64,000 nt of DNA from Candidatus Woesearchaeota archaeon (GCA_028818155.1 JAPPOH010000005.1:29943-93942); one strand, 5' to 3'. Shown: positions 16,693-40,000, numbered from the stretch's first letter. Notes: generated by a model from the sequence alone, not told the origin. Made by a program: numbers and translations.

Positions 16693-19600
16693 CTAGACAA
16701 TCTCAAAGAAGAAGCTTACAGTGTCTTCACTCCCCTTGTATGAGGCTAGGCGTGAGGGCACTTTAATTTCATAGTCATACGTTCCAAACATGCCTGCTTG
16801 TGAGACATTAATGTTCGCTACGAATACGAGATCCTCTTCATCCGTTGTGTCAAATTGATCATTCGCAGATGCATCGTCGGCACTATCCCATAAAATACCA
16901 GTCCAGAATGCAGTGACGTTCGTACTATTCACATACGGCACGTTTTCAACGAAGTTACTTGTGAAGTTCACACCCCTCACACTCAGAGGAGTATTCGTGC
17001 CACCACCCCAAATTTCTTCAAGAGAATCCTCGAACGATGATGTATTGAGGTTTGTATCAGCATCGGTAAAGTCATTCCCAGTTGGACTCCCCCCTTCTGT
17101 CCGTGTAAGAGCGTAGAGATTCACAATGGAGAATGCACTGTCAGTGTCAGCAACAAGCAAATGACCAGCAACATTCGAAACATTGCCGAACTCATAGTAC
17201 GATGTGTTATCCCCCCCGCTGTGGAGCACGATTCCTGATGAGACATTTCCATAGTAGATTTGATACTGCTCAACAGTAAGATTTATCGTCACATTATTGT
17301 TGAGAAGATTCGCGTCATCTTGTGTATTCATCGGATCCACAGTCACGAAAATTTCATTTACGCCAGGCAACAAGATGTACGACACATTCACGACCACAGA
17401 TTGGCTAATGTTGAGCTCAGCAATCGTTATATTCCCATTGATTTGGTCGCCGCCTTGCCCACCTGTGAAGAACTGCACAATGATGCTGTCATTCGTATCA
17501 GTATTCCCTTGGTTCGTGATATTCGCGAAGAGCGTTATGTTAACCCCTTCAACAAGTGACTCACCACTCGTCGTCACATCAGTCTCATTGACCTTCAAAT
17601 CAGGACCGGTAATATTAATAGTGAAATTAAGCGGCGCAAACGCACTATTCCCATATGTATCGTAACAAAGGACATTCCATTCCCGTACGCCAACATTCAC
17701 GAACTCTTCATAGAATGTGTTATTTTCACCATTCGTAGGAGTTGTGTTTGTCACGATAGGATCAAACGTTACTTGCTCGAGATAGAACGTGCAATTATCT
17801 AGGTTGATATCATACGGAGCATACGTAAAGTTGAAGCTCCCTGCGCCACTCTCAAAGAAATCTGGCGGCGCGTAGAGCGTGACGTTTGGAGGAGTTGAAT
17901 CCGTAACAATTTCAAACTGTGCCCACCCCGTTCCATTCGTGAAGTTAGAGCGGTACGCTTCAGAGACAGCAGAGTAATTCCCAAAGACTTCAGATGCAGT
18001 GGGGAATTGCATGAGAACAAACCCACTTGAATCTGTCTCACTCTCATTCCTGTATATGTGCCACTCCTCTTCTTGAAACGCTGTAGTAATATTGGCGTTT
18101 GTCATCTTGTCACCAACGACTTCGAAGTTATCCCACATACAATGATCTCCAGCGTTCCCAGGAGCGCGCCCACCAAGGTTAAACTGAATGACATCATCAA
18201 TATTACACTCAATTCCAGCGTATGTGCACGCGTCATATGGTCCTATCTCAAAGTAATCAACAGGCTCAGGTGTTGCATCATTCGTATAGCACGTTGTTGT
18301 GTTTGCGTTCGTGCAGTTAAGAAGCAACGTGTATGTTGCCGCGTTATCATCAGTTGTGATGAGCGTACAAAACTCACTCAGAGAATCCAGGCTTGCACCC
18401 ACAAAGTCAGATGAAGCACGAATACTATCACACGGACTCGTTCCACAGAGTGAATTGTTGTTGGTCATGTTGAAAATAACCCCCCGCTCAGGAGCCCAGA
18501 CATCCAGGTCTTGTAATCGCAAGGCATAATCTGTCGATGAGTGTGCCTGATCAGCACCATCGTCCGTCGTACAGAACTCATAGTCTCCACCATCAATACA
18601 TGCATTGAAATTACCCCACGGGCTGTTTTCCGTGCACAAATTCGCACCACAGTTTGTTCCAGTTGTATCAAACCATCCATCCCCTCCCGAACTATCTCCA
18701 AAATCTTCCGTCATAATCGTCACAGTCCGCGAAATCGCAGCATAACCAGGATCTGTTGCGCCAGAATTGTTGTAGTAAACGTGATACATTTCATCATTTG
18801 TTGCACCACCACTAATATTCGCAAGGAACCTGAACTCACAATACTCATCGTCATCACCACCAAGCGCTTCAACAGGGATGACAGTGTAGTTGTTCTTCAC
18901 ATTGCTGCTATTCAACAGAATTAACCGAATTTCATTCACACAATCCGAGATATTCCCAGCCAATCCAGTAATGTTAGCAAAAACAACAACATCTGTTCGT
19001 GCGCTTGCAAGTTGATTCGTTATGAGGAGGGGTTGTCGTTTCTTCCATGACGTGTTCCACCACTTGAATGTTGTATTCCCATAGATAATGTCAGTTGTCA
19101 CATTTGTTTGTAAGCCTGTTCCGAAAATATCTGTTGTGTTGGTTGTGATATTAGCAATATCTCCCACTTCGTATTGTAGCTTGTTTGTCGTTACATCAAC
19201 ATTGATAGAATCACTCTTCAACACCGTGAAATTGAGCGTGAAACTTGTGTTGAAATTACTTTGCACATCATAGCATTGCACTCGCCACGTATAATTCCCA
19301 TCCTCGAGATATACATTGAACTCTTCTGTGGCGCCAACAGTTACTGACGTGTCAGTCTCATTCTCAAGCTCATCGATAAAGAGTGTACAATTGTCTATGG
19401 ATATGCTATCAGATACATTGTACTGAAGCACAACATTGTTCGTCCCAACAAACGAGCTGTTTTCAGGAGAGAGTTGTGTTATAATTGGTGGTGTGATATC
19501 CAGTATAGTGATCCAGTGTGTTTCCACACTAGATGTATGATTCTCTGTCTCATTGAAGACAGCAGTCACATTGTAGAATCCAGGTTCTGCAAAGAACGTA

Positions 19601-22600
19601 AAGTTTGTGATTGGAGCACTTGCATTCTCAAGCAATGTACCGTTCAAGTAAATTTCGATGTATCCAGCAGAAGGTGTGATGAGTGCTGCCGTGATATTTA
19701 CAGAGCTACGCTCTATGATGGTGAGGTTTCCATCAGTATTATTCAAGAGAAGATTGATAGAACCAGTCGCTTTGTTAATGATATACGTATGAAGAGGAGT
19801 TTGGTTAATATTATTACTCGTGTCGTTTGCATACCAGCGATACCGGTACGTTCCACCAGCAAGATCACTGATTGTGTAGTTGTATATGTTCGAGACAGAA
19901 AGTGCAACGGTTTCATTGATCAGTGCGCCGGTAAAATTATGCTCAAGAAGAACTGTGTCAACAGCAACATTATCTATCCATGTCGCATTGAATTCGTACA
20001 AGGCACCAGAACTGTACGTTGCTGGAGATGCAGGATCTGTCGTATTGCTCGTGTACGTTGGCGGACTTGTATCGACAATAATTGTCCTGTTGCTGCTGTC
20101 AAACGACCCTCGACCAGATTGATCTTCACACAACACGTTCCAGATGTACGTCCCATCTACTATTGAGCGTACAAAAACACTTGGCTGTCCATTCAGTGGT
20201 GTTGTATTCACTTGCACAGCAATCCAACTTCCCGTTTCATTCGTATACAAGGAGCAGTTGTTGAGATTTGTATCGTTCCCTGTGTAGTTGAATGTAATAC
20301 TCGCTCCAACAAGTGCGCCGTCTGAGGGAGCATTGAGCATGACTGTTGGATCTGTAAGGTCAATTGTGAAATCATTCGTCACAGAGGTTCCTGAATTGAA
20401 ACTTGTACTGTTGTCAACACACGTGATACTCCAGTTGTGCGCACCTTCAGGCACTGTCGCGTTGAAGAAATTCGGCACAAAATTATTCACAAAGCATGCT
20501 GGTGTGACTGGTGCACGAAGATTGCCTGATTCGAGTGCCCCCCAGTACACGAGTTCTCCAGTGTGCGTGTCACAGTCGTCAGCTACGTCTTGTTCACAGT
20601 AGCGGAAATCCATACCACTTGATACGACATTCCGAGCCCAAGGATACTGCGGATCTTGCCCACCGTCGTCATCGTTTTGCGTCACCATGACAATAGGATC
20701 GCCGAAATTTGGACTGAAAGAGGCAGGCGTCCATCCTGAATTAGTGATGTCTGCACTTCCGTTCTGGTATCCAACGATTTGTGTTTCTGTTATGGCCACC
20801 CACCCAACAGTCTCTGTTGCATCCCCTCCAGTACACGTATCTACTACCCCTTCGTGTACACAACCAATAACAGTCGTATGGCTTGCGTTCGTATCTGCCC
20901 CTTCAACCCACGCATTGAGAGCCATTTCTCCTGTGTTTTGATTGTACGTGTTTGTGGTTGTGAAAACGTGTGGTGTTCCCGAGAGTGTTTTGCCAAAGGA
21001 AACTGCGTTATCTGCCCCATTGTGATTGATCCCAGTGGTTGTTCCTGCAGCGATCCAGTCATAATTTGCGATAGCATCAACATCGAATACTACATAGTGT
21101 ACATCCTCAAGTTCAGTTGTCGTGTCACACGTTGCTGCACCGTTGTCGCTACACAAGCTAACGTTGAATCCTGTGGTTGTTACATCTTTCACGACAGGCA
21201 CAAAACCGTTATTATCTTCAGCCGCTCCGGCGTTCTGGCTTGCGGGCGTTGCAATCACGACAGGCACACTCGCATATGTGTTGTTGAACGTAATATAGAC
21301 AAACGTGAAGTTCCCCACTTGTGTTGCCCCTGCTTCCCCAATTACCTGGTTTCCACACGTCTGGTTTAAGACTCCATCAATGTAAAGCTCGCATCGATCA
21401 ATTCCTGTCGCGTCTTCAGGTGTGTAATTGAAGGTGACATTGCTCTGAGGGATGTGCTCATTGTCAACAGGATCATTCAGTGTTATCAGAGGAGGATCAG
21501 CATCAACAACACTCACAGTAATGTTGAAGAACGCCACTGTCCCTTCATTTCCATTATCATCAGTACAGTTGACTGTCCAATTGTACTGCCCATTCAAGAG
21601 AAATTCTGTGAACGTGAACGTCACACCGTCAGAGATCGTCGTCTCCGTCTGCTCAACCACATCATTAATGATAAGCTCACAGAAGTCAACATCACTCATT
21701 ACATCATTCGCACTTGCATTAAATTGTACATTATTCGTCTCATTTTCAAACGTGTTGTTCGTTGGCACAAGTAAGGTAACAATTGGTGGTGTAAGGTCAA
21801 CAATGATAGTTCTATTGAGCGTTTCATATGATGTCACCGAATTTCCTGCTTCATCAATACAGTTCACAGTCCACAAATAGTGCCCTTCTGCAAAGTCAGT
21901 TGTGATGAAACTCTCTCCACCATTGGTGATCGTTGTGTTTGTTTCATTCGCATCAAATGTCCCTGTCGTGTTCACATACAATGTACAGTTGTCTACTTGA
22001 TTGGTATCACTCGTCGTGAAATTGAATGTAATTGTACCTGTCCCATATTCTGTCGCGTTCACAGGCAGGTTAAGTGTGAGATTCGGTCCAAGCGTGTCAG
22101 TGATATATGTAAAGTCAGCGGTCGAATTCCTACTATTACTGAAAACATCATATGCAACAACACGCCAGTAATAGATCGAGTTAGCGTCGAGAGCGAAATC
22201 TACAACTCTTGAAGTGTTCGTGATAGGATCATTATCATACGTGAAATCAGGACTATCGAAGTCACTCGATTTATCGAGAATAATCGTGTAGTTATCAAAT
22301 GTATCATCTGTCGTTTGCTCCCATGATAGATTCGGTTGTAAGTTCGAGGAAACTGTTCCGGAGAGGGGCAGTAACAAGGTGAATGGAGTCGGATCGCTTG
22401 TGTAAACTTCAAATGATAGTCCTGGTGAGGTATTCTGTCCTACTTGTCCAAACGTATCGTTCGCCCATATGAGTGTAATGTTATAGATACCTGACTGATT
22501 TGTTTCTATGATGGTGTGTATGAATGTATCACCATCTTGTGTGAGCGTATAGTTCTTTCTTGTTCCATTCGGGAAGAGCAATTCAACAAGTCCAGTATCA

Positions 22601-25050
22601 ACACCAAATGTGTCAGTTATCGTCGAGTTGAACAATATGTACTCGCTTTGATTGATCGATGTGTCGTTGATGACTCCATCTGTTATCGACGGGGTTACAT
22701 TATTCACATGAACAGTGAAATTATGCACAGAGAAATCACTATTCGCATGCGTATCAATACATTGCACGTTCCAGACGTACGTTCCATCTGCAAGACTCAG
22801 TACTGTGATATTTGTAGTTGTTGCAACAGGAACATCTGTGGCACTCGCATTCGGCGCCCATGAGCCAGTACTATTCGTATAGAGTGTACATGTCGCAAGC
22901 ACCGCATCGTAGTTATCAGTTGCTGAGAAGTCAAAGTCAACATTGTTGTCATTCACTTCAGTGTTATTTCCAGGTGCAAGGAGTGTGACGACAGGTGCTG
23001 TGAAATCACACACACCATCCCAACGGCTCCCATTACTATGATATGTTGAGAAGAGTGCATCATCTGTGTCATTCGTGTATGCAATAGCAAACGTATTGTT
23101 ACATAACCCTGTATTAAGGTGGGAATTCCAGCCAGTCACACCTATTAGTTCGTATGTAGTATCGGGAGAGCTCGTCACAATGAACGGAGCTGTGACTTCA
23201 CTTCCCGTTTGGTTGTATACTGCAGCTTTGATTGTTCCATCAGATGTATCTTGCCAGGCAACGACAAAATGACTTTGCGAGGCATTGTTAATTTCCGCGA
23301 TATCAACACGACTATCTGTTCCAGCATTCGCATCAATCTGTGTGTTACCAAGTAACGTCGTGAACGTGAGACCATTCGGCCGTCGTATACCAATGAAAAT
23401 GTCATCAACATTCGAATCATAGTAGACATACGCAAACGTATCATCCTGCAAGTGCGTCACAGCAACTTGCCCTGTTTCTCCAACATTCGTGTCAACATCC
23501 TGATTGTTTCCTCTTGAAAGCCCATCTGCAGCAACCCACCGTAGTGTCGCGTCATTCGGCGGATCATCAAATCTGATATAGATCCAGTGCGAACTGTTCA
23601 CTTCTGCACAGTCGACAAGATTCTGCAGTGTGAGTGCAGGAGCAATATTCCCGTCAACATTCCATTCATTTCGAATTTGTGCTCCATCATTCCCCCATAT
23701 CTCAAGGTCAGCATCTCCATCAGCAGTATTCGCCCAAACAATGCCGAATTCACTTCCAATTTGACAGAGTCCAACATCCATATTCGCTCCGATATTCGGA
23801 TCAACTTGGGTTTCCCCTTGCACTTGTGTTCCAGTGCTATCATAAATAAAGAAGTCAACATCATCTTCAGGTCCATCACCCACAGCAAACACAAAGTGCG
23901 TCCTATTGATAACTTCAACAGCAACACGACTTGTCAGATCCCCTGTTGTGTCAACATCGACTTCATCCACCAATTGCGTCCCATTCGTATTCCAGATTTC
24001 AAACGAGGCATGATTGTTGGCATCCCCGTCGATGAACCCTATGACGAGTGTTGTTTCATTTAACGCAGTCAGTCCAACGTCAATCGCTTCATTATCGTCA
24101 AACGTTTCAGCAAACCCAGGATCTGTCGAATTAATTATGAAGTCATATGACTCTCCTGGTGTGATGCTTTGTGCGTACGTCCAATTTCCGTAGCATGTTT
24201 GTGCTGTGAAGTTCCATTCAACACATTTCCATAATTGCGTACCTGTCGCGTTTGAAGTTACTGTTGCGTTCGTGAAGTTCACTGCTGATGGATCAATTGC
24301 GTACATTCTCGCTGGAGCCCTCTCACGGATGATAACTCCATCACTCTCGACGGGTTCTACACCTATTTCAAGCCCTTGTTCAATCACGACATCCCGAAGC
24401 GCGATACGTTGCACGGGAGCAGAGCTAAAAATGACATCCATATCATAGTGTTCCTCACTTAATTCTGGTGTAAACTGCCCTAAGTTGATAACATTCCCTA
24501 TTTTGTCTTTTATGAGGATTCCAGAGGGCACTATCTCTTTCTTACTTGTCTTCACTTCAAGAATACGGAGCCCATCATCCATAACAGGAGGGGGGAGTGA
24601 GATTTGTGGTGTGGTGTTTGTTCTGTTCTCAGATGTATTCACTTGCACAGTAACAGGTGTTGTATTCTGCACGCTTCCATTCCCAGATATTGTAACAATC
24701 GTTCTTCTTTGTCTCGGGGGAGCTGCTGTTTCAACCTCAGCGATGGCAGTAAAGGAAATGTTCACCCGTCCTGAAACAGTAAACGCTTCAATGACATAGT
24801 CGCCAGCCTCTCGAGGAGTAAACGCGATAGAAGAACTCGGTTCTCCCATCAAGCGATACCGTTCCTCCCCGTGAACGATCGTGAGGGAGGAAATTTCACT
24901 AAGGACTCGTATGACGACAGGCGTCCCAACTTGCTGCACGTTAGAGGAGATGAAGAACACATCATTCGACACTGGCTCGCTGAGAACAGGCATAAGCAGC
25001 AGCACGCTCAGTAGTGCAATGACCATTACTCGTTGTTGCTCACCTCTCAT
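16693..25050 (-). CDS. giant secreted multi-domain protein (2785 aa); contains CARDB-like domain, Ig-like Cys-pair repeats, one copy of the ~270-aa Cys-rich cassette domain, conserved C-terminal domain shared with the 5406-aa protein
   Basis: Uninterrupted 8.4-kb ORF. The N-terminus has a signal-peptide-like hydrophobic segment (VMVIALLSVLLLMPVLSEP). The C-terminal ~100 aa (ILWDSADD...GTYDYEIKVPSRL) is homologous to the C-terminus of the next gene. A CARDB-like segment ends in DDANLLNNN. Confidence 0.9.
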   Translation of the reverse strand: MRGEQQRVMVIALLSVLLLMPVLSEPVSNDVFFISSNVQQVGTPVVIRVLSEISSLTIVHGEERYRLMGEPSSSIAFTPREAGDYVIEAFTVSGRVNISFTAIAEVETAAPPRQRRTIVTISGNGSVQNTTPVTVQVNTSENRTNTTPQISLPPPVMDDGLRILEVKTSKKEIVPSGILIKDKIGNVINLGQFTPELSEEHYDMDVIFSSAPVQRIALRDVVIEQGLEIGVEPVESDGVIIRERAPARMYAIDPSAVNFTNATVTSNATGTQLWKCVEWNFTAQTCYGNWTYAQSITPGESYDFIINSTDPGFAETFDDNEAIDVGLTALNETTLVIGFIDGDANNHASFEIWNTNGTQLVDEVDVDTTGDLTSRVAVEVINRTHFVFAVGDGPEDDVDFFIYDSTGTQVQGETQVDPNIGANMDVGLCQIGSEFGIVWANTADGDADLEIWGNDGAQIRNEWNVDGNIAPALTLQNLVDCAEVNSSHWIYIRFDDPPNDATLRWVAADGLSRGNNQDVDTNVGETGQVAVTHLQDDTFAYVYYDSNVDDIFIGIRRPNGLTFTTLLGNTQIDANAGTDSRVDIAEINNASQSHFVVAWQDTSDGTIKAAVYNQTGSEVTAPFIVTSSPDTTYELIGVTGWNSHLNTGLCNNTFAIAYTNDTDDALFSTYHSNGSRWDGVCDFTAPVVTLLAPGNNTEVNDNNVDFDFSATDNYDAVLATCTLYTNSTGSWAPNASATDVPVATTTNITVLSLADGTYVWNVQCIDTHANSDFSVHNFTVHVNNVTPSITDGVINDTSINQSEYILFNSTITDTFGVDTGLVELLFPNGTRKNYTLTQDGDTFIHTIIETNQSGIYNITLIWANDTFGQVGQNTSPGLSFEVYTSDPTPFTLLLPLSGTVSSNLQPNLSWEQTTDDTFDNYTIILDKSSDFDSPDFTYDNDPITNTSRVVDFALDANSIYYWRVVAYDVFSNSRNSTADFTYITDTLGPNLTLNLPVNATEYGTGTITFNFTTSDTNQVDNCTLYVNTTGTFDANETNTTITNGGESFITTDFAEGHYLWTVNCIDEAGNSVTSYETLNRTIIVDLTPPIVTLLVPTNNTFENETNNVQFNASANDVMSDVDFCELIINDVVEQTETTISDGVTFTFTEFLLNGQYNWTVNCTDDNGNEGTVAFFNITVSVVDADPPLITLNDPVDNEHIPQSNVTFNYTPEDATGIDRCELYIDGVLNQTCGNQVIGEAGATQVGNFTFVYITFNNTYASVPVVIATPASQNAGAAEDNNGFVPVVKDVTTTGFNVSLCSDNGAATCDTTTELEDVHYVVFDVDAIANYDWIAAGTTTGINHNGADNAVSFGKTLSGTPHVFTTTNTYNQNTGEMALNAWVEGADTNASHTTVIGCVHEGVVDTCTGGDATETVGWVAITETQIVGYQNGSADITNSGWTPASFSPNFGDPIVMVTQNDDDGGQDPQYPWARNVVSSGMDFRYCEQDVADDCDTHTGELVYWGALESGNLRAPVTPACFVNNFVPNFFNATVPEGAHNWSITCVDNSTSFNSGTSVTNDFTIDLTDPTVMLNAPSDGALVGASITFNYTGNDTNLNNCSLYTNETGSWIAVQVNTTPLNGQPSVFVRSIVDGTYIWNVLCEDQSGRGSFDSSNRTIIVDTSPPTYTSNTTDPASPATYSSGALYEFNATWIDNVAVDTVLLEHNFTGALINETVALSVSNIYNYTISDLAGGTYRYRWYANDTSNNINQTPLHTYIINKATGSINLLLNNTDGNLTIIERSSVNITAALITPSAGYIEIYLNGTLLENASAPITNFTFFAEPGFYNVTAVFNETENHTSSVETHWITILDITPPIITQLSPENSSFVGTNNVVLQYNVSDSISIDNCTLFIDELENETDTSVTVGATEEFNVYLEDGNYTWRVQCYDVQSNFNTSFTLNFTVLKSDSINVDVTTNKLQYEVGDIANITTNTTDIFGTGLQTNVTTDIIYGNTTFKWWNTSWKKRQPLLITNQLASARTDVVVFANITGLAGNISDCVNEIRLILLNSSNVKNNYTVIPVEALGGDDDEYCEFRFLANISGGATNDEMYHVYYNNSGATDPGYAAISRTVTIMTEDFGDSSGGDGWFDTTGTNCGANLCTENSPWGNFNACIDGGDYEFCTTDDGADQAHSSTDYALRLQDLDVWAPERGVIFNMTNNNSLCGTSPCDSIRASSDFVGASLDSLSEFCTLITTDDNAATYTLLLNCTNANTTTCYTNDATPEPVDYFEIGPYDACTYAGIECNIDDVIQFNLGGRAPGNAGDHCMWDNFEVVGDKMTNANITTAFQEEEWHIYRNESETDSSGFVLMQFPTASEVFGNYSAVSEAYRSNFTNGTGWAQFEIVTDSTPPNVTLYAPPDFFESGAGSFNFTYAPYDINLDNCTFYLEQVTFDPIVTNTTPTNGENNTFYEEFVNVGVREWNVLCYDTYGNSAFAPLNFTINITGPDLKVNETDVTTSGESLVEGVNITLFANITNQGNTDTNDSIIVQFFTGGQGGDQINGNITIAELNISQSVVVNVSYILLPGVNEIFVTVDPMNTQDDANLLNNNVTINLTVEQYQIYYGNVSSGIVLHSGGDNTSYYEFGNVSNVAGHLLVADTDSAFSIVNLYALTRTEGGSPTGNDFTDADTNLNTSSFEDSLEEIWGGGTNTPLSVRGVNFTSNFVENVPYVNSTNVTAFWTGILWDSADDASANDQFDTTDEEDLVFVANINVSQAGMFGTYDYEIKVPSRLASYKGSEDTVSFFFEIV
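20510..21330. repeat. copy A of ~820-bp intragenic repeat cassette (encodes ~270-aa Cys-rich domain ...PVVIATPASQNAGAAEDNNGF...DPQYPWARNVV...FRYCEQD...ELVYWGA)
   Basis: Long stretches align base-for-base with 32090-32930 and 38370-39210. Examples are the TTCTGGCTTGC[AG]GGCGTTGCAATCAC segment and the CAGTAGCGGAAGTCCATGCC segment. Spurious antisense ORFs with near-identical peptides recur at each copy. Confidence 0.8.
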
Positions 25051-28000
25051 CGTAGTTCAGTATAGAAGCTTACCGATCCACCTCCGAGTATATAGTCACG
25101 TAATGTCGCAGGAATTTTGATTTCATAATCATATATTCCATATTGTCCTGCTTGTGATTCGTTCATGATTGTCACAAACACAATGTCTTGCGATGTATTG
25201 TATGCTGAGCCACCATCACTTGTATCCCACAAGATACCTGTGACAAAGCTACTTGTGTTCGTACTATTCACAACAGGAATATCTGTGATTGTCCGCTTGA
25301 ATGATTGTAGCGTAATAGAGGCTACAGGCGCTCCTCCGCTCGTCCACGTGAGATTAACACTGTCATTCAATGATGTTGCGTTCAGTTGCTGATCAATCTC
25401 TTCGAAGTCATCATTTCCTGTGTCAGTTCCATTTGTTGTGTTTCTCCCAATTGCTTGTAGTGAGGTGAAAATCAGAGAACTATCAGTGTCAGCAACGAAG
25501 ACATTACTTCCTGTTACGTTTGTTTGATTCCATTTGAATGCGCTGATGATAGATGCATCAGATATTTTGAGCTCATTTCCACTTGTTCCTGCAAAGATTT
25601 CGAAATGCCCGACATTGAAGTCTCTGAATGCTTCGTTATTACTTTCATTTTCTTCAGCAATACTACCATTTGTCGCAAGCGGCGGATCAACAAGTACATA
25701 GATTCTATTCAAGCCAATGACTGCTGAGTGATTCATGCTGACAGTTGTATTCTCGCCAATCCCCAAACTGGCAATAGTGGCATTCCCATTGATTTGTACA
25801 CCGCCCAGATCAGGATCACCAAGGAAGAACTGCACAGTGATATTCGTAGCGTTCAAGTTTCCAATGTTAAAGACTGTTGCATTGACTTCCACTGTCTGAT
25901 TTTCGATCGGCGTGCTGTTGCTGAATGTAATATTCCCTGCATTGATTTCTAAGTCGGAAAGCTCAACGAAGAATTGCCAGGTTTCACTAATGCCTGCGTT
26001 TGTCGCATTGTCAATACATGTTGCATTCCAGAAGTGGTAGCCGCTGTTGAGATCATTCACGGTGAAATTGTGGAAACTGCCATTCGTCACGGAAACATTC
26101 ACACTCACCACAACATCGTCGAGGGTCAAGTTACAGATGAGCGGCGTGCCAAGATTGTCACTCACCGTGAAGTTCAATGTTACGCTTGTACTTGAAAGAT
26201 TAGTATCGTTTAGCGGTGTGAGGAGTGTGACATTTGGTGGTGTTACATCTACATAGATGACAATCTCAGTATCATTTACTACATGTCCTGCTTCATCAAG
26301 TGCTTGTACAATGATTGTGTGATTCCCTTCTGTAATCGCGTTGAGTGTTGCAGTAGCTTCAACGCCATTCGTGCTCGTCCCGTTTGTATTCGCCACACCA
26401 TCCACATAGATTGTGTAGTTCAGGATAGGATCAAGATTGTCCGTGATGTTGAAATCAATGCCTGGAGTTAGTGTGTTGAACCACGTGTTGTTTGCGGTCG
26501 TGGTATTCGGTACTGGTGGCGTAAGATCAACATAGAACGTCAGCACAGTACTATTGTCTATGTTTCCTAACTCATCTTCTGCCTCTACAGTGACTGTGTG
26601 TTGTCCCTCAGCCAAGTTGCTGAGATTAACAGTGTTTCTCGTATTGTTCGTAGTTGTGTTCGTATGGTTCAGTGTACCATCGAGGTAGAACGTGTAGTTG
26701 AGGTTTGCTGAGAATACATCTGTGATGTTAAACTCAATCGTTACGTTCGTGACGGCATACCATGAGTCATTCTGTGTGAGGAATGTCACGTTCGGTGCTG
26801 TTGTATCAATTCGTATAGTGAGTGGTGTTGAATTCTTGAATCGCTGTAGTGTATCATTTGCCTGTACAATGATTGTGTGCACACCATCAGCTAGTGCTGT
26901 GATGTTCAAGCTGTTGTTTTGCAGATCTTGCACGACACCGACTTGTCCGTTTGCTGTGTCATCAACATAGATAACGTAGCTGAGATTCCCTCCAGTAAAG
27001 TCACTGATGTTGAAATCAATTTGTGGCGTTGTGTCTGCTGTAATGTTATTCTCTAATGGTTGTGTAATATTAGCGAAGAGAAGACTAATATTCCTTGATG
27101 CATTATTGTTGTTCTCGACAAGCTCCCCAATCAGTCCATCAGGATCCGCGGAGACAAAGATTTCATGGTAACCAAACGTAATGTTCCAACTTACCGAGAA
27201 GATCGTGGAGCTGTTGAATGCCACAGTCTGTGTGTCGTTGCCAATAAGTGTTCCTCCCGCACTCGGTAGCCCATCCCAGAACTGTACAAGTACGTCGTTT
27301 GCTCCTGTACCGCCTATGTTGCTCACATTTGCGGTAATATTTATTGTTTCACCTAGGTCAGGATTTGTCTCGTTGAAGTTTATTCGTGATGTTTCGTTGA
27401 GGACGAGATCTGGCTGGTTGATAACGAACGACTGTGTGAGGGAGTTGTTCGTGTTTCCAAGATCATCACTGCATGTGACATTCCAGTCATGAGAACCATC
27501 TGCAAGTCCAGCTACCGTTGTATTGAAGTCAGTGTTCGCAGTTCCAGTTATGCCAGTCACTGTGATGTTGTTGCTTGCATTCGTCACGAAAAGCGAACAA
27601 TTCACAGTTGACCCAGGGTGATCAATTGGTGTCCAGTTGAATGTGACATTATTACTATTCAACGTCTCGAGGTCCAGTGGTAGATTGAGTATAATTGTCG
27701 GACCGAACAAATCAACGTAGAAAGTGTAGTTTGTGTCATTTATGCCCTCATTGCTACTCAAGTCGATACAACTAACTGTCCAATTATACTCTCCATGTGC
27801 TAGTGCTGTGAGATTAAAGTCATTCGTCACGTTATGTGATACTGTTGTGTTCGTTTGATTGTTAAGACCATTCACAATGAGTGTACAGTTCCCAATGTTC
27901 TCTGAATTGTCAGTTGGTGTGTAATTGAGCATGAATGACGTTACTGCTGCTCTCGTTCCATTCGATGGAGCGTCTAGCACTACTTTAGGCGGTTCATTCA

Positions 28001-31000: not shown

Positions 31001-34000
31001 GTGTTCCATTCCCATCTACTATTGTCCGGGGTAGTTCAACGGTTACATTGTTTTTGAATTCCACAATGCGGAGCTCTGTATCACAATCAGTGTTATATCC
31101 GTCCAGATTTGAAATATTCACGAGAACAACTTCCCCATAACGAGGGCTATTTGTTGTCTCATTGAGATCAATCGCAATACGCCTTCCCCATGACGTGTTC
31201 CACCACGGAGCACCGGTTGTTGAAGCATTTGTGTAAATGATATCTGTCGTAACATTCGTATTCAATTGTGCCCATGAGGAATTGAACACTGTCACAGTGA
31301 TATTTACAATCTCTCCCTGCTGATAATTCGACTTATCAGTCACCACCGAGATGTTTACTGGCAGCGTTATGTTTACAGTAACAAATCGAGTTTCTGACGT
31401 ATTCACATTCCCAGACGCATCACTACATGTGACGTTCCACTCATGTATTCCATTCCCCAGTGTTTGCACTCTGTTAGTTAACGTGTTGTTAGGGGCATTG
31501 AAATTCAAGTTACCACTATCAACAACACCATCAATCGTTAGATTGCATGTCATATTCGCAGAAAAGTCATCAATAGGTGTGAAATTGAAGTTGATTGCTG
31601 GAATTAGTGCAGTTGTATCGTTCAGCGGCAAACTTAAGTTGATGAACGGTGGTATTCCATCAATATTTATCGTGTATGGTCCATTATACGCGGTGCCATT
31701 CTCACCCAAGTTATCTGTACAATTCACCGTCCACGTATGCACGCCCGTAGCCATGTTGTTCACAATGAAGGAGTTGTTTCCTGGCACGGTGAGTCCGGTC
31801 GTATTAGATCGGTTAACAACATCGTCAATGATGAGCGAACAATTGCCGATGCCATCTCCATCTTGTACATAGTATGTAAAGTTGACAGTATTCCCAGACT
31901 GTGTCGTCCCATTTACAGGTACTTGTAACTCAATGAATGGCGGACCTACAATCGTGAAGTTTCTTGTTTCAGAGATATTATAGTTCCCTGCTTCATCAAC
32001 ACACGTAACATTCCAGAAGTGTAACCCATCAGGCAGTGTGAGATTTCTATTTATCATGACCTCTGCACAGCCGTCAGGAGGAGGTCCAGAGACATTTCCT
32101 TCCTCGAATGCACCCCACACCATGAGTTCAGCAGCGTGTGTGTCACACGTATCTGCAGCGTCTTGTTCGCAGTAGCGGAAGTCCATGCCGCCTGCAACAA
32201 CGCTTCGGGCCCAGCGATACTGTGTGTCTTGTCCACCAGCGTCATCGTTTTGTGCCACCATAACAATGGGTGTTGTATACGCAGGTGTGAATGTTGCCGC
32301 AGTCCACGTCGAACTTGCAATAGCAGCACTACTGTTCTGGTATCCAACGATTTGTTCGTCAGGGGTGATCGCCACCCACCCAATCGTTTCTGTTGCGTCA
32401 CTCCCTGTACAATCATTCGCTATTCCCTCGTGCACACAACCAGTGAGCCCTGTCTGTGATGTTGTCGTATCAGCATCATCAAACCAGAAGCCCATCGCCA
32501 TTTCACCAGCATTTTGCGTGTATGTTTGCATCGTTCCCCACACGTGCGGTACACCACTCAGCGTTTTCCCGAAGGACATAGTTTGTTCGACGCCATTACC
32601 TTGGATGCCTGTTGACGTTCCTGCAGCGATCCAGTCATAGCCAGCGATCGCATCAACATCAATAACAACATAATGGACGTCCTCAAGTTCAGTTGTCGTG
32701 TCACACGTCGTTGCGCCATTGTCGCTGCACAAGCTGACGTTGAATCCTGTGGTTGTTACATCTTTCACGACAGCAACGAAGCCGTTATCGTCTTCGGCTG
32801 CTCCTGCGTTCTGGCTTGCAGGCGTTGCAATCACAACAGGGGTTGATGTATACGTTCTATTGTACGTGATGTATGCGAACTGGAAATCTTCAACCTGTAC
32901 CGCACCAGCTTCACCAATCGTCTCATCACAGCTTTTATCGTATGCCCGTGCAGGTGATGGGATGTTGGAATCTTCCACCACACCATTTATGGTGATGTTA
33001 CAGAGAAGCTCAGTATCAAGGTTGTCGAAAACTGTGAAGTTTAAGCTCGCCACACCTTCTGTGAATGTGATACCGTCCGTTGTGTTGAGGAGCGCGAGCG
33101 GTCCTATAGTATCAACGGTGAAGTTTCTTGTGCTGCTGCTCCCCTCAAATCCACCAAGATCAGTGCAGTTCACACTCCACAAATGCACACCATTCGAAAT
33201 ACCAGTAATGTTAAAGAAATTCGGCTGGTTTGCTGTTACGCTTGTATTTGTTTCATTTGCTACACCATCAAGAATAAGTGTACAATTACCTATTCCAATA
33301 GGATCAACCGGTGTGTAGTTGAACAGCACAGTACTTTCATTCAAGAATGCGTTCGCTGCTGGCGCATTCAGGGTGACTGTGGGGGGTCCTGTGTTCTGTG
33401 TGAAATAGAATGTTTCGGATGTAGCACTATTTCCTGCTTGATCAATACATGTAACGCTCCAATTGTGTGTTCCATCAGGCACCGAGAAGACGGTGACGTT
33501 TGCCTGTCCGCCAACATCCGCTGCGACGTTGCTCACATTAAGGATATCGTCGATCGTCAAGTTGCAGATCAGCGTTCCTGTGAAATCATCTGTGCCGTTC
33601 CAACCAAACGTTACATTCGACGTTGGTGGGCTCGTGTTGTTTCCAGGAGTATCAAGTGCAATACTTGGTGCTACGTTGTCAATTCGCACATCAATTGTTT
33701 CATTATTCTCTGCACCAAACGTATCGTTACACTCAGCAGTTAGATTGTAGAGCGCGTTCGCAGCTACTGTCGTGTCTGACGAATTGTAGAAACTCGTTGC
33801 ATTTGCCTTTAGTGTTCCTTCAGGTCCAATACCGATGGTGTCGTTATGATAGTAGTAATCACACACATCGACACCGTTATCATCTTCCGCGCTGATATTG
33901 GAGAGTTGTGTCAACCGAATATTTGGCCGCATTCGCGTCCGCACTTCAACGTAATCTGTGAAAATATCAGCACGAGCATCAATACCTGCTGCAGTTGTTT

Positions 34001-37000
34001 GGTTTCCAACGATGAGGATGTGGAGATCACCGTCATCAAGAATATCATCGACGCCTTGTAATTCGAGTTCAATGTACATATCTGCAGCTATCGTGTTGTT
34101 CGCTTCATGTATTCGAGTGTATGAGTTACTCGTGTGGTTGAATACGTAAATATAGAATGTATCTGCTGTCTGGAATGTTTGCTGTGTAACATACCCTTCG
34201 TAGAAGAAGAGGATTTCTTCTATATCGATCGGCGATTCAGTCACTTCAAATCGGAAGCTCTGATAGACGGACTCTCCAGTATCTGTTGTTGTTGTCGTCG
34301 CAAGTCGAACGTTATTCGACGTTGTGACAGATGAGTAACTCGAGGTTGATATTTCTGTTTCTCGAACGGGGGTACTTGTCGGCAGCAAACTTCCGTTTGC
34401 ACCATCATATAACGCATGTATGTTACTTGGATGCGTGATACCTGTGTATGTGTACGTGCTCACCACATCAGCAGGTTCGATAAATTCAATGAGTGGCTCA
34501 TGTGTCATTCGCTGCCACTCGAATTCAATGTACGCTCCAGGACTTGTCGCTGTGCCATCATTTTCAAAGTCACCACATCCAACATCTGTGAATGCCCGCC
34601 CTGTCCAGAGTGCACACGAGAGTGTGTCATCTTCTCCCTGATCATATACAAAGATTTCATCATTTCCAGGACTGCTCGATGTGATAACATGTCCAACATC
34701 TCCTCCGCCTGGTTGTCCAATAGGATTTCCTTCACCCCAATCACTAAACGACCATGAATTTGAGCTAATCGTGTAGAAGCCACCTTCAGGGAAGTCTTCA
34801 TTCGCATCAACCCACACATATACGATCTGGTCACCTGATTTTTCAATGGCACAGCTTGTTGAATGCAGGGCTGCTGTTCCTTCGTTCCCACCACATTCAC
34901 TTGCAGTATCTTGTACGGGTGTTTCCGAGGATAGTGCTTTCGAGAATGCACTGCCATCCCAGTAGCCACCATCACGATCAGCATCCTGATCACACGTCAT
35001 AACACCGATGTAATCGTGTGCAAACGACCCTGTCGATGGTGATTCTCCACACAAATGCACCTCTCGGGCTTCAGCACCAAGACCATCGTAGATGTTGCCA
35101 AGATGCGTCCACGCATTTGTGCTTGGCTGGAATCGCCATGCATAGAGATCGTCTGAGTTATTCCCGTATGCGAAGAGCATTTCTCCAGAATTTCCTTCCC
35201 ATGCACATGAGAACTGCTTTCTGTCATCTCCATCAGCTTCTAATGTAACGTTGATCGTATGGTTAAACACATTGTTGTCTCCATCCCACACGGTTGCGTA
35301 AATATCACCTGTTCCCGCATCATTTTGTATGCCCATGCCGATGAGGTTAGTGTCCTTTTGTGCACAAAGCTCAAGCCATCTGAAGTCGTTGTTCGGCGCT
35401 CCACTGATACTGTATGTCTGCTCTGTACTGAGATTATCTCCATTCCACAATCTGTAAGCGAAATCCCCATCAAGCCCATTTGCTGTCTCATACACGACGA
35501 GACAATCTTCACTGACGAGATCTTCACATGCGACATCGAAACTACGCTGCACATCCAAGCCCCGATTCGGCTCTACTTGTGTGATATTATGCCACACTCT
35601 GTTCACGATGTCGAATACCGCAAAATCAATAGAGTTATCGACTTCTTGAATCATAGCATAGCACTCGGGCCGCCGTTGAGCACAAACAAATCGATACCAT
35701 GAGATATTGCTTCCAAGTGCGCCAAAGATGTTTTCTTCTTCGCCAAGTACACCGGTCCAATTCCTCTGTAGCGGATTCTCTGGATCAGTGAGGTTTGCGT
35801 ACAGGAGTATTCCAACTTCACCAAACTTCGGTAGTTCAAGATCATTGAACTCTGATGGGGCGTTGACAGTGAATGCACGTTGTTCACTCGTATTCTTATT
35901 CGCACGATTATCAGTGCACGTGACATTCCACGTGTGTGCTCCGTTCGCAACTTCAACAGATCTAGTCGTTGCAGTGCCATTGGGAGAGGGGATGTTTCCG
36001 AGACGAATAGCACCATCAACGATAAGATCACACGCAAGCTCAGGATCTGTATTGTCCGTTGCAGTCCAGTTGAATGTGATCAATGAGACAGCAAAGCTTT
36101 CTGACACGAGCGGTGCGTTGAGGACGATAGTGGGCTCCTCTTCATCAACAATACAGGTGCCACCCCACTCCCCTCCGTCTTGGTAGAACCCTTTCCAGAC
36201 AAGATCCCCAGAGCTGTTTGTGAATGCTACTACAAAGGAACCCTCACAGATGCCAAAGCCAAGCTGCGTGTCGGCGCCAATCGCATCATGTAGGAGGTAT
36301 GTCGCATCAGGCTCACTTGTAATGTTGAATGGTCCTGCCACATAGCTGCCGTTATTATCGAAGACTGAGGCTTTGATGCTGTTATCTGCTCGGTCTTGCC
36401 AGACGACAGCGATATTGCTCGTCCCTTGGAACTCAACTTCTGCGGCAGCAACTCTCGTTTCAGTCCCTAAGTCAGTGTCAACTGCAGCAGAGCCGATTGT
36501 TGTGAACGTATCACCTCCAACATCAAGCACAGTGAGATTGACGTGGTTGACGGCACTGTCGAAGTACACAATACCAACGCGTTCTCCTCCAATGTGTGCA
36601 ATCGCAACCTGTCCTGTTTCACCAATATTCGTGTCAATATCAGTTATGTTGTTGATGATGCTCGCACCTGTGTTTGGAATGATTCTTGCGCTCAAGTCAT
36701 TCTGACTGTCATCGAACCATGCTGTTACGGCGCGCGTGCTGTTCGTTGTTGTACAATCGACAAGGTTCTGGAGTGTTTGTGCAGGCGCAATGTTTCCATC
36801 AATGTTGAACTCACTCACACTCAACGTGCCATCATTCGTGTAGATCTCTCCATCATAGTCGTTATTCAAATCTTCTCCATACGCGACAATGAACTCTGCA
36901 CCGTACTGGCAGACGCCCATGTCTGTGAAGATATTTACATCTGCGTCAACCTGTGTTTGTCCCACCACCGCAGAGCCATTTTCGTGATAGATGTAGAAGT

Positions 37001-40000
37001 CAACATCTTCTTCAGGACCATCATTCACGATGACAACGAAATGTGTTTCATTGATCGGTGCCGCTGCGATGCGACTGGAATCGTCAACAGTTGTATCGAT
37101 ATCAACTTCTGGCACGAGGAGTGTTCCATTTGCGTCCCAAACTTCAAATGATGTGTGATTACTATCAACATCAACCCACGTCACAATAATCGTTGTGTTA
37201 TCGAGTGCCGCGAGTGCTACATCTTGTCCCTGGCTGGCATCGACGTATCCGGTAGGCACATCAACTGTGACGAACCGCGTTTCACTCGTGTTTACGTTGC
37301 CAAATGTATCTTGACACGTGACGTTCCAAATATACAAGCCATCTGACAGAATGAGCGATTTGTTTGCCGCTACACCTGCGCTCGATCCAATTGTGGCTTC
37401 CACATTGCCATTTATGGTCAAGTTACAACTAAGGAACACTGCCTGATCGTCATCAGCTGTCCAATTGAAATCAGTGAGTGATGTGGGTACTGTCGAATCG
37501 TTCGCTGGGGAATTTAGTGTGATGTTTGGTGCGATGTCATCAAACCCACAGAAGCCATCCCATGTACTTCCATTCACGAGGAAGAGTTTTCGCTCACCAA
37601 CGGCAGAGCTATTCGTGAATGATACAACGAATGTCCCATTGCAGAGCCCAGCTTCGTGCTGGGAATTGTATCCTGCAACACCGTGCAATCTGTACGTATC
37701 ATTGATATTTGTGCTAATGTTAAAGGCCGGTGTGATGAGCGTTCCTGTTCTGTTGTACACAACAGCCTCAATGACATCTTCTCCTTGATCATACCATGTC
37801 AGCACGAACATGCTTTCATTGTCTGCTTCAATTTCTGCAACATCTAATCGCACTTGCGAAGTAACAGACGTGTCAATGTTAACAGGGCCAACAGCCGCTG
37901 AGATGGAATCTGCGGATGTATCGACGACAAGCATTTTCACAGTGCTCTCTGGAGAATCATAATAGAACATTGCTATGTCTTCGTCTCGTAACCCTGCGAG
38001 TGCCATCTGTGATGTGCCACCAACATCAAGATCTGCTCCTGATGGCCCTGCAACGATAGATCCTGTTTCATCGTAGAGTGCTGCTGTGAGGTCGTCTGTC
38101 GCGTCATCAAACCAGCTCACGAACCACCTCGTGTCGCTCACCGGCACAACGGAAACGAGATTCTGTAAGTTTTGGTCAGGCGCGACGTTATCGTCAATAT
38201 CGAATTCAGTAGCTTCAACACTGCCGTTGAGATAGTGGATCATGCCGTGAAGATCATCGCCGCTCGTGTCATCGACCCACGCAGAAACGATTCGATTTTG
38301 AATGTATGCTGATGACACGTCAACATTTACGCCCGCATCCGTATCAAGAATGAATGGCGCACCGATCGTACCTTGTTCAAATGCGCCCCAGTACACGAGC
38401 TCACCTGTGTGCGTGTCACAATCATCATTCCCGTCTTGTTCACAGTAGCGGAAGTCCATGCCACCAGCGACAACATTTCGGGCCCACGGATATTGTGGAT
38501 CTTGTCCACCGTCATCATCGTTTTGTGTCACCATGACAATAGGGTCTGCAAAGGTCGGTGTGAATGTTGCTGCTGTCCAGTCAGAGTTGCTGATGTCGGC
38601 ACTTCCTGATTGGAAGCCACCTATTTTGTGATTTCCCGTGTCAATCGCAATCCAACCAACAGTTTCAGTGGAGTCTCCTCCTGTACAGGTATCTCCTGTG
38701 TCTTCATGGACACAGCCAAGAACAGTCGTATGACTTGCGTTTGTATCCGCTCCCTCAATCCATGTGTTCATCGCCATTTCACCAGCAGTTTGCGTGTATG
38801 TTTGTGGTGTCGCGAAGACAAAGGGTGTTCCTGAGAGTGTTTTGCCAAAGGAAACGGCATTATCTGCCCCATTGTGATTTATCCCAGCGGTTGTTCCTGC
38901 AGCGATCCAGTCATATGCTGTGATCGCATCTGGGTCAACGACGACGTAGTGGACCGTTTCAAGATCTGTGTCAGTGTCACACGTTGTTGCGGCGTTGTCT
39001 CGACAGAGACTGACGTTGAATCCTGTGCTCGTTACATCTTTTACGACAGGAACGAAGCCGTTATTGTCATCGGCTGCTGCTGCGTTTTGGCTTGCAGGTG
39101 TTGCAATCACAACAGGCGCATTCGAGTATGTGTTTGCGAACGTGATGTATTGGAAATTAAAGTCTTCAACTTGTGTGCTCCCTGCTTCGCCTATTGGTCG
39201 GTAGGTGTGGTGTCCGCTTTTATTGTAGACGTAGATGTAGTTTGTATCATCATCTGCGTCATAGAGATTGATCAAGAAGTGTGTCGTGTTGATTGTCGCT
39301 GCATCAATGCGTCCCCAGTTTGACGATCCATCTTGCACATCGGTATCAATGTCAATTGCTCCATACAGATCTGTCTCATTTGTGTGTATAATTCTGAAAC
39401 TTGCATCCTGACTTGTCTCTTCTATGTATGCAACAACGTAGAGATCTTCATCTAGTGCTGTGACGTCTGATTCGACGACAGGCTCATCGGAAAACTCTGG
39501 GTCGATTGCCAAGTACCATGGTCGTGCTTCGGTAATTGTTGTTGTGTCGTACGCGACTTTCGATTGTCCAAGTTGGTAGAGTTCTGGGGTGATTTTCGGG
39601 ATTGTTGCTGTGTAGCTCACTGTGGAGCCGTTGCTGAGGTTATTCCACGTAAGGAAAATGTTCGTCGTATCTTGTGTTTGCGTTGCTGTGCTTGTGATGT
39701 TTGTGAAGTTGATGGGCAAGACTTCTGTATAGTTGAACGCACCGCTATGGTTGAATGACGTGACTGTTACAGACACAGCGAGCAGCTCTTTGAATGGATC
39801 TATCGTCACGGGCGCATTCCTGATGATGTCGAACGGATAGTGTTCCTGCACGAGGAAGAAGGAGAGCATGCTCTGGTTCACATTCACATCGTGTGCTTCC
39901 ACGAAGAGATCGTATGTTCCTTCTTGTTCTGGTGTGTATATCGCTTCGTACACTCCATCAGATGTCTCTATGATCGTTGTGATATTCGTCGTTATGTTAT

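Follow-up and report, generated by a model that had tools for sequence, protein, structure and literature searches.

A tandem-triplicated H-type-lectin-like module in giant surface proteins of a Woesearchaeota archaeon

We identified three cassettes (A, B and C) in two giant secreted proteins encoded by a 64-kb stretch of DNA (the window) from a Candidatus Woesearchaeota (DPANN) MAG. Each cassette is a ~271-residue module of three tandem homologous H-type-lectin-like (PF09458) six-stranded beta-sandwiches. Taken as a whole, the reading that we consider probable is that of a triple H-type-lectin knob carried on giant surface proteins, its copies alike mainly through purifying selection, with some old and patchy exchange. 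A divergent fourth copy, module D, occurs in a third giant protein. The neighboring genes for Orc1/Cdc6 and RadA are archaeal. The features are:

5871..16481, minus strand: g3536, secreted giant protein of 3536 aa, carries module D
9672..9968, minus strand: uninterrupted paralogous Ig-like domain in g3536 (aa 2172-2270), showing the loop that takes the A/B insertion
11046..11858, minus strand: module D, divergent fourth copy in g3536 (aa 1542-1812; family HMM 57.3 bits, i-E 3.5e-19, model positions 11-266)
16693..25050, minus strand: g2785, secreted giant protein of 2785 aa, carries A (NCBI MDD9953414.1, "hypothetical protein")
20347..20493, minus strand: C-terminal half of the Ig-like domain hosting A (g2785 aa 1520-1568)
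20530..21342, minus strand: cassette A, triple H-type-lectin-like module in g2785 (aa 1237-1507; repeat 1 aa 1237-1330, repeat 2 aa 1331-1424, repeat 3 aa 1425-1507), from sequence, PF09458, internal repeat homology and AF2 model
21358..21498, minus strand: N-terminal half of the Ig-like (Big_13-type) domain hosting A (g2785 aa 1185-1231), aligning with g3536 aa 2172-2218
25047..41267, minus strand: g5406, secreted giant protein of 5406 aa, carries B and C (NCBI MDD9953415.1, "Ig-like domain-containing protein")
32103..32918, minus strand: cassette B, triple H-type-lectin-like module in g5406 (aa 2784-3055), from sequence and PF09458
38376..39194, minus strand: cassette C, triple H-type-lectin-like module in g5406 (aa 692-964), from sequence and PF09458

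Cassettes A, B and C are homologous, in frame and ~815 nt each, within ~20 nt of the coordinates given in an earlier reading made from the DNA alone (the sequence-only reading). They are the sole long DNA repeats among the giant genes; at 100 nt or more, the window has one other direct repeat, a small unrelated pair at 54035-54258. Each has its nearest relatives in the other two (68-79% protein identity), the closest outside protein reaching 58-59%. The cassettes stand clearly above their flanks: across 900 aa of paralogous A/B context, protein identity is 60-93% within the cassette vs. 18-42% outside it. The description of a discrete, unusually conserved, Cys-rich domain of ~270 aa holds up, and its Cys-containing motifs are found in the cassettes. 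On the other hand, copies called near-identical, with long identical runs, share only ~70-76% of their nucleotides (A-B 0.71, A-C 0.755, B-C 0.695), the longest identical runs being 37 nt (A-B), 27 nt (A-C) and 23 nt (B-C), and the supposedly invariant DPQYPWARNVV reads DTQYRWARSVV in copy B. Assembly duplication is excluded by differences at 24-30% of positions. B and C are separated by 5457 nt (6276 nt start to start) with the reading frame kept.

The giant proteins have signal-peptide-like N-termini, arrays of Big_13, CARDB and Ig domains, and 138-269 N-glycosylation sequons each. The knob would be displayed on giant, heavily N-glycosylatable, signal-peptide-bearing surface proteins. Alignment shows A and B to be nested in a loop of an Ig-like spacer domain and bracketed by two cysteines. 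In g2785 the cysteines are Cys1232, after the N-terminal half of the host domain, and Cys1519, before its C-terminal half. Aligned with the intact g3536 domain, the two halves are identical to it at 56 of 98 residues (57%), and this domain, which has no insertion, is the closest to the host of A. Cassette C sits in a context unlike that of A and B, and has no flanking cysteines. The sequence-only reading had also noted a divergent relative in the 3536-aa protein; this is a complete fourth module (D), of which only the last third had been caught. Module D keeps the Cys pair in its middle repeat only and scores 13.4 bits with PF09458, below the 24-bit cut-off.

Family assignment starts from repeat 1. 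Scanned as a module alone, it scores 36.0 (A), 27.2 (B) and 27.5 bits (C) with PF09458 (H_lectin), for which 24 bits is the curated gathering cut-off; within the whole giant proteins the scores are 19.7-22.7 bits, under the cut-off. Pfam recognizes only this repeat in A, B and C, and in homologues PF09458 matches other repeats too. Repeats 2 and 3 are tied to the H-type lectin family because of their profile-profile homology to repeat 1: hhalign relates the internal repeats to one another at 99.3-99.7% with profiles from 146 modules, and at 80-95% with profiles from a shallow seven-sequence alignment (A2). The AF2 model (pLDDT 82.3, pTM 0.86) has 6-7 strands per repeat, and its fold matches include Helix pomatia agglutinin (HPA), SLL-2 and discoidin, on one or other of which the six-stranded antiparallel beta-sandwich is superposable. 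A domain that the sequence-only reading could not place in a known family, while guessing correctly that it might be lectin-like, is now assigned as a tandem-triplicated H-type lectin.

Each repeat contains one Cys pair (C-x6-7-C), which probably closes a hairpin as a disulfide, and the pTM of 0.86 predicts one compact unit. Because of this pTM, the repeat homology and partial structural matches, we propose as the most likely arrangement that the fused repeats surround a pseudo-threefold axis, which would give a "single-chain trimer" binding knob. Multi-repeat matches with 136-159 aligned residues include the PCSK9 C-terminal domain, single-chain APRIL-BAFF-BAFF, single-chain C1q and herpesvirus dUTPase-like proteins, all of which we take to be single-chain pseudo-trimers. 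Over the whole module, TM-scores for PCSK9 and APCbeta are low, at 0.28-0.37. Among viral proteins, one matches along the full module (TMq 0.69, E 6e-9), and no sequence relative was found in 2.9 million viral contigs. Among the known systems compared, the only multi-repeat structural matches are the PCSK9 C-terminal domain, APCbeta of the apicomplexan PLP1 and engineered single-chain TNF-family ligands, which have three similar beta-sandwich subdomains per chain and are pseudo-threefold. However, with TM-scores of only 0.25-0.37, different subdomain folds and no similarity in sequence, the likeness is one of architecture, not of family.

Among A, B and C, dS is 1.28-1.61 and dN/dS, a comparison that the sequence-only reading had suggested, is 0.10-0.20; thus, it is mainly purifying selection acting on the protein that keeps the copies similar. 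At conserved residues the copies use the same codon in 55-57% of cases vs. 40-41% after codon shuffling (z 4.7-5.1). The flank signal is z 0.8-1.6, and the same test gave no shared-codon signal between module D and A, B or C. For the A-B pair, cassette and flanks differ in this codon signal by only ~2 SD, a difference that is partly expected because identical residues in alignments of 25-30% identity are often chance matches.

The copies are mosaic, with repeat 1 grouping A with B and repeats 2-3 grouping A with C. Polarized with the outgroup P0020, positions 6-77 contain 5 AB sites vs. 1 AC and 1 BC, and positions 107-262 contain 13 AC sites vs. 1 AB and 3 BC (Fisher test on the AB/AC counts of the two segments, p 0.002). 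Three-way site patterns are uneven along the cassette at all sites (permutation p 0.0002) and at third codon positions (p 0.006), and per-repeat identities agree (repeat 1, A-B 85% vs. 77% protein identity). Segment-specific rate changes, not exchange, could account for part of such patterns. Given the mosaic signal, the excess of shared codons and the position of the module in a loop where the 57%-identical g3536 domain has no insertion, some exchange between copies is likely, old and patchy. The discordance expected of gene conversion is present and fits old exchange only. Within this genome, A, B and C probably descend from an ancestor more recent than that of their flanks, whether by lineage-specific duplication or by concerted evolution; no sign of recent or ongoing gene conversion was found.

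The sequence-only reading explained the likeness of the copies by recent gene conversion or cassette exchange. The copies would then be substrates for recombination-based variation, conceivably of an antigenic or phase type, and the segment between B and C could be deleted or duplicated. The cassettes are indeed far more alike than their flanks, with shared codons in excess and a mosaic signal, and B and C are in-frame direct repeats of one gene. Yet synonymous divergence already largely refutes this explanation, which we judge very improbable: synonymous sites are near saturation (dS 1.3-1.6), DNA identity is only 70-76%, and no near-zero-dS tracts were found between A, B and C. With ~30% divergence and longest identical tracts of 23-37 nt, the copies are poor substrates for homologous recombination. 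Each copy lies in frame inside one of three long intact ORFs, silent or promoterless donor copies are absent, and the conserved flanking recombination segments of cassette-based antigenic variation are absent from the flanks, which are 18-42% identical. The public collections searched contained no variant contigs, close relatives or strain variants, and no sister genome with positional orthologues. Furthermore, the module retains 37-55% identity between phyla, a degree of conservation at which selection by itself accounts for much of the difference between cassette and flanks. Old exchange between copies is likely and recent exchange is not supported; as for the B-C interval, its in-frame spacing would permit deletion or duplication, and no such variant was found in the public collections.

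The opposite explanation is plain duplication and divergence with zero exchange, the module being the slowest part of paralogous giant genes and C deriving from a later duplication of an A-like copy. The low dN/dS, the deep conservation of the family across archaea and CPR bacteria, the status of A-C as the closest pair overall and the possible dilution of the flank codon signal by alignment noise all favor it. We nonetheless consider it unlikely, as repeat 1 groups A with B (5/7 polarized sites) and repeats 2-3 group A with C (13/17), third codon positions are uneven too, and the nearest match to the host domain of A is a g3536 domain without the insertion. Almost no probability attaches to an origin of the repeats in faulty assembly, with contig segments collapsed or duplicated, or in a diversity-generating retroelement (DGR). 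Such elements are common in DPANN archaea (PMC7443923), but apart from this nothing speaks for either except the repetition itself; 24-30% of sites differ, all frames are kept, contexts are distinct and the module fold is not a C-type lectin fold. The DGR signature, with differences confined to template adenines, is not seen among the mismatches (A at 25-33% of them vs. 29% in copy A overall). On the reading that combines selection with old exchange, strong purifying selection would hold the module while the Ig-like spacers drift, giving the contrast with the flanks, and the three copies would retain traces of patchy exchange on top of their shared, genome-specific ancestry.

The role of the module is probably adhesion: the knob would bind a glycan or other surface ligand on a partner cell or substrate. 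In sequence, the module is only marginally similar to H-type lectins of solved structure (HPA, E 0.87, repeat 1 only). In that weak alignment, HPA positions 63, 83 and 84, which we take to be the GalNAc ligand residues, face non-conserved residues; sugar specificity, and even sugar binding, is therefore only putative. The most conserved motifs of the family are in repeat 3 (NDDxGxQDPQYPWAR and RYCEQD...CDxH..E..W). A lectin-like fold may instead bind protein or peptide, or be structural or oligomerizing, an alternative that we find rather doubtful. The non-conserved ligand positions and the diverse receptors recognized by phage fiber knobs of like fold favor it, whereas the heavy glycosylation of archaeal and CPR cell surfaces counts against it, and no partner gene is evident. 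[quoted passage not shown]

Known H-type lectins, such as HPA, coral SLL-2 and the C-terminal domains of Dictyostelium discoidin I/II, normally act as homotrimers with ligand pockets at protomer interfaces (PMC6048534), and the module is the likely counterpart of this threefold working unit in one chain. In contrast to these lectins, its units are fused and diverged from each other, each has an extra Cys pair, and the known GalNAc-ligand positions are not evidently conserved. Its hosts are archaeal giant surface proteins, not small soluble lectins, and it can be nested in an Ig-like domain. In the type IVb minor pilins CofB and TcpB, a C-terminal H-type lectin domain trimerizes at the pilus tip, and the stand-alone module relatives P0001, P0003, P0019 and P0023 likewise pair a pilin-like N-terminal hydrophobic segment with the module. 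The CofB trimer, however, needs three subunits where a single chain here supplies the three domains, the ligand of CofB is a peptide (CofJ), not a sugar (PMC6048534), and a sequence relationship of CofB/TcpB to the module is not detectable. The knobs of phage tailspikes and R-type pyocin tail fibers (LKA1 gp49, phi297 gp61, PA0620) have a similar fold but are homotrimers of separate chains.

The family occurs in DPANN, Methanosarcinales, halophile-like archaea and CPR bacteria, with 1192 representative proteins matching at E <= 0.001; among the 118 best-scoring ones, which were examined further, 25 have two or more full copies. The module is a widespread family that has not been annotated as a unit: NCBI gives "hypothetical protein" or "Ig-like domain-containing protein," and Pfam sees one weak repeat. 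Lectin-like surface proteins of DPANN have been proposed as host-attachment factors; these giants (ConA/LamG-like proteins and C-type-lectin-fold DGR targets) are likewise large, glycosylated, organism-specific and secreted, and combine Ig/PKD arrays with a carbohydrate-binding-type module (bioRxiv 10.1101/2023.10.27.564410; PMC7443923). The lectin fold described here differs in being H-type, triplicated and without a DGR signature, and the papers found do not mention the module.

We tentatively suggest, as a possibility somewhat short of an even chance, an undescribed, widespread family of single-chain pseudo-trimeric H-type lectins. In giant adhesins and pilin-like proteins of episymbiotic DPANN archaea and CPR bacteria, as well as of some Methanosarcinales and halophile-like archaea, they would be the knob that recognizes partner cells or glycans; patch-exchanged paralogues inserted in Ig-like loops may constitute a repertoire of specificities. 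With recent conversion unsupported, an attractive phase-variation scenario, itself without support, falls away. For host recognition and attachment by ultra-small DPANN archaea and CPR bacteria, ConA/LamG-like and C-type-lectin-fold proteins have been the candidates to date. The module would add a concrete, testable candidate that is compact, strongly conserved and recurrent, and its length of 271 aa would suit production in isolation for glycan arrays and structure determination.

The three cassettes (A, B and C) each encode a ~271-residue module of three fused H-type-lectin-like sandwiches that are under strong purifying selection and are displayed within giant secreted proteins of Ig-like spacers. 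The locus is archaeal, flanked by genes for Orc1/Cdc6 (306-1598, minus strand) and RadA (61777-62793, plus strand). An exact-sequence look-up returned MDD9953415.1 (NCBI label "Ig-like domain-containing protein") and MDD9953414.1 ("hypothetical protein"), both from a Candidatus Woesearchaeota MAG. Five secreted-protein genes, g5406, g2785, g3536, g742 and g575, are arranged head to tail, all on the minus strand. The three that carry modules are named for their lengths in amino acids. Cassette limits were set by the encoded protein (IGEAG...WGA[LF]E).

Giant genes and the modules they carry
25047-41267, minus strand: g5406, carrying cassettes B and C
38376-39194, minus strand: cassette C (g5406 aa 692-964)
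32103-32918, minus strand: cassette B (g5406 aa 2784-3055)
16693-25050, minus strand: g2785, carrying cassette A
20530-21342, minus strand: cassette A (g2785 aa 1237-1507)
5871-16481, minus strand: g3536, carrying the divergent module D
11046-11858, within g3536: module D (aa 1542-1812; family HMM 57 bits, i-E 3.5e-19)

All five proteins have signal-peptide-like N-termini. Arrays of Ig-like, Big_13, CARDB and cadherin-like domains occur in g5406, g2785, g3536 and g742, and the three largest proteins each contain 138-269 N-glycosylation sequons. Stop and start codons overlap at g5406/g2785 (25047-25050), g3536/g742 (5871-5874) and g742/g575 (3646-3649). Together with the shared strand, this suggests that the five genes form one long operon of surface proteins.

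In a whole-window repeat search the giant genes gave just one set of long direct repeats, in three copies (~20505-21220, 32078-32796 and 38351-39072). This search and the protein-delimited limits place the cassettes within ~20 nt of where the sequence-only reading had put them, and the Cys-containing motifs it described are found there. The cassettes do stand out from their surroundings. Along a 900-aa paralogous stretch of A and B, identity is 60-93% inside vs 18-42% outside, with sharp edges, and outside the cassettes the best mutual matches of the giant proteins are ~30-44%. However, copies described as near-identical share only 0.695-0.755 of their nucleotides, and the supposedly invariant DPQYPWARNVV is DTQYRWARSVV in cassette B. 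The observation is real, but the nucleotide-level likeness was overstated.

Pairwise comparison of the cassettes
A-B: DNA identity 0.71, protein identity 0.72, longest identical run 37 nt
A-C: DNA identity 0.755, protein identity 0.79, longest identical run 27 nt
B-C: DNA identity 0.695, protein identity 0.68, longest identical run 23 nt

The only other direct repeat of at least 100 nt in the window consists of two 107-nt copies, 78% identical, in a 75-aa lysine-rich ORF (54031-54258, plus strand). This ORF comprises two tandem ~37-aa repeats (KVAKxGVKKExGYLYFVDKxGDxSxAKMARG) and could encode a small duplicated nucleic-acid-binding protein. A 290-aa ORF (48208-49080, plus strand) has weak NACHT/AAA_22 P-loop matches under the curated cut-offs and adjoins the oppositely oriented gene of an AsnC-family regulator (47118-48110).

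The domain, previously left without a family, is an H-type lectin in tandem triplicate. When A, B and C are scanned in isolation, their first thirds score 36.0, 27.2 and 27.5 bits against Pfam H_lectin (PF09458; curated cut-off 24), and single repeats match H-type lectins in fold searches. The three Cys-containing segments noted earlier are equivalent parts of three internal repeats of ~94, 94 and 83 aa, each closing with C-x6-7-C-x5-6-E-x-V-x-[YW]; in module numbering the Cys pairs are C64/C71, C162/C170 and C249/C257. Profile-profile comparison matches the thirds to one another at 80-95% probability with a 7-sequence alignment, and at 99.3-99.7% (E 1e-20 to 1e-27) with profiles from 146 family members. 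AlphaFold2, run on a shallow alignment, predicts one confident unit in which each repeat has six to seven strands (mean pLDDT 82.3, pTM 0.86). The proteins matched over more than one repeat are single-chain mimics of beta-sandwich trimers. Alignments of 136-159 residues were obtained with the PCSK9 C-terminal domain, single-chain APRIL-BAFF-BAFF, single-chain C1q and herpesvirus dUTPase-like proteins, and PLP1 also matches beyond one repeat through its APCbeta domain. H-type lectin domains form homotrimers with the binding pocket at subunit interfaces (PMC6048534), so the simplest reading of the predicted structure is a trimer fused into one chain, and we infer that the repeats would pack with threefold symmetry. 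The tandem-triplicated H-type lectin module is thus probably a single-chain trimer. A PDB sequence search with one cassette gave no match, and the family profile matched only HPA there, marginally. NCBIfam has no model for the triple module, which is described neither there nor in the searchable literature. A 784-aa predicted viral protein (BFVD UPI001E6AE1CA_1) aligns structurally over the entire module (TMq 0.69, E 6e-9, 18% identity).

The nucleotide-level likeness had been attributed to recent gene conversion. Among A, B and C, dN/dS is 0.10-0.20 and dS is 1.28-1.61 (Nei-Gojobori), indicating that the protein is under strong purifying selection and that synonymous sites are nearly saturated. 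These dS values, with DNA identities of 70-76%, rule out recent conversion. Several other origins of the pattern were also ruled out: assembly duplication, because the copies have diverged, are all in frame and occupy different contexts; diversity-generating retroelement mutagenesis, because mismatches lack adenine bias; and dual coding or RNA structure, because synonymous sites are free to vary, plus-strand ORFs across the cassettes differ between copies, and the window contains no Rfam families or tRNAs.

A residual signal nevertheless persists in codon choice. Where two copies have an identical aligned residue, they use the same codon in 55-57% of cases vs 40-41% after within-cassette synonymous shuffling (z 4.7-5.1), so about a quarter of synonymous states are still shared. 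The signal falls to z 0.8-1.6 in flanking paralogous regions and is absent for module D. For A-B, cassette and flank differ by ~2 SD, and noisy alignment of the flanks may account for part of this. Among 146 modules, the nearest relatives of A, B and C are one another, the nearest outside protein being P0020 (58-59%). The signal is mosaic, with three-way site patterns that vary across the cassette (permutation p 0.0002 overall, 0.006 at third positions). With P0020 as outgroup, polarized sites in repeat 1 join A with B (5 AB, 1 AC, 1 BC), whereas those in repeats 2-3 join A with C (13 AC, 1 AB, 3 BC; Fisher p 0.002 for the AB and AC counts). Protein identity follows suit: 85% for A-B vs 77% for A-C in repeat 1, and 78% and 82% for A-C vs 63% and 69% for A-B in repeats 2 and 3.

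The insertion sites add to this picture. Judged by their flanks, A and B sit within a Big_13-type Ig-like repeat. Reading along g2785, DPPLITLNDPVDNEHIPQSNVTFNYTPEDATGIDRCELYIDGVLNQT is followed by C-GNQV, the module and SGNLRAPVTPA-C, after which the Ig-like domain resumes (...VPEGAHNWSITCVDNSTSFNSGTSVTNDFTIDLTDP); the two bracketing cysteines are Cys1232 and Cys1519. A paralogous domain at aa 2172-2270 of g3536 is uninterrupted. Pairwise alignment of this domain with the two host halves of g2785 gives 56 of 98 identical residues, and it has a 17-residue loop at the module's insertion point. B is inserted into that loop in a more divergent Ig-like repeat, within the same bracketing cysteine pair; C lies in a different, non-Ig context without these cysteines. 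Cysteines on both sides occur in only 8 of the 134 family modules with enough flank, A, B and P0020 included, so this "stapled" nested form is lineage-specific. The insertion site shared by A and B, the overall closeness of A to C, and the closeness of A's host domain to the uninterrupted g3536 domain point to an old, patchy process in which the module was exchanged or relocated between paralogous genes. Such exchange is all that is indicated; the proposed role as recombination substrates is unsupported as a current process, and the cassettes are not a variation system.

The sequence-only reading was right that g3536 holds a divergent relative, although the segment it saw (~11000-11400) is only the third repeat of a full module. 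Module D is complete, keeps the Cys pair in its middle repeat only, and resembles a Cys-poor module subtype.

A ~100-aa C-terminal region (VPxVNSTN..TGILWD..YDYEIKVP) is common to g2785 and g5406 (16693-17000 and 25047-25350, minus strand) and recurs at the C-termini of P0005, P0024 and P0030, giants of unrelated length. A shared function in anchoring or sorting is probable. Over the ~400-aa C-terminal regions (g2785 aa 2381-2784, g5406 aa 5004-5405) the shared-codon excess is z 3.2. The g3536 C-terminus differs and is common to P0010.

The module family is widespread and is unannotated as a unit. A word-indexed protein search found only four relatives vs 1192 representatives by exhaustive profile search (E <= 0.001), 163 of them at E <= 1e-30 and many 2000-5700 aa long. 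Among the best 150 of the 1192, 118 proteins contain 146 full-length modules; 25 of the 118 have two or three copies (19% to 84% identical within a protein). Matches in genomes include "Archaeon BMS3Abin16" (55%), a second Woesearchaeota MAG (48%), MAGs of Methanosarcinales (37-45%) and the CPR bacteria Peribacteria and SR1 (37-38%). No relatives were found beyond 55% in genome contigs or 48% in metagenome contigs, except for 61% over a 59-residue fragment, and 2.9 million viral contigs yielded no sequence relatives. A Cys-poorer variant occurs in several acidic, halophile-like archaeal proteins. In P0022, P0026 and P0027, Cys-free and Cys-pair subtypes stand side by side at 19-25% identity, indicating an older split within the family. 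The copies in P0009, another giant protein (aa 1385-1651 and 2002-2268), are 84% identical, and a stretch of >100 residues reads as identical; recent duplication or homogenization may thus occur in other genomes, though not seen here. P0001, P0003, P0019 and P0023 are stand-alone proteins of ~440-546 aa with one triple module and an N-terminal hydrophobic segment (e.g., ...KKSQASMEFLMSYGWIIIVALVAVGG) that we read as an archaeal type IV pilin-like signal. Their layout recalls pilus-tip minor pilins bearing an H-type lectin domain. The P0001 gene has housekeeping neighbors in an uncultured archaeon.

As for function, the repeats would pack as a pseudo-trimer with one to three ligand pockets in the grooves between repeats, and the Cys pairs would make disulfides stiffening the hairpins. 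A further disulfide, in A and B, would shut the base of the insertion, so that a knob projects sideways from the Ig-like rod. Residues conserved family-wide are concentrated in repeat 3 (NDDxGxQDPQYPWAR, RYCEQD...CDxH..E..W), which suggests a single critical pocket or face. GalNAc/Gal is the typical ligand of H-type lectins (PMC11377244, PMC6048534), and by analogy we slightly favor glycan binding. The HPA ligand positions are not evidently conserved in the marginal match to HPA, and in CofB the same fold binds a peptide (PMC6048534). For this module we consider a protein or peptide ligand rather unlikely. Lectin-like surface proteins of other DPANN archaea have been proposed to act in partner-cell adhesion (bioRxiv 10.1101/2023.10.27.564410; PMC7443923), and a similar role would fit this module. 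The module is a good experimental handle on surface recognition in DPANN archaea and CPR bacteria.
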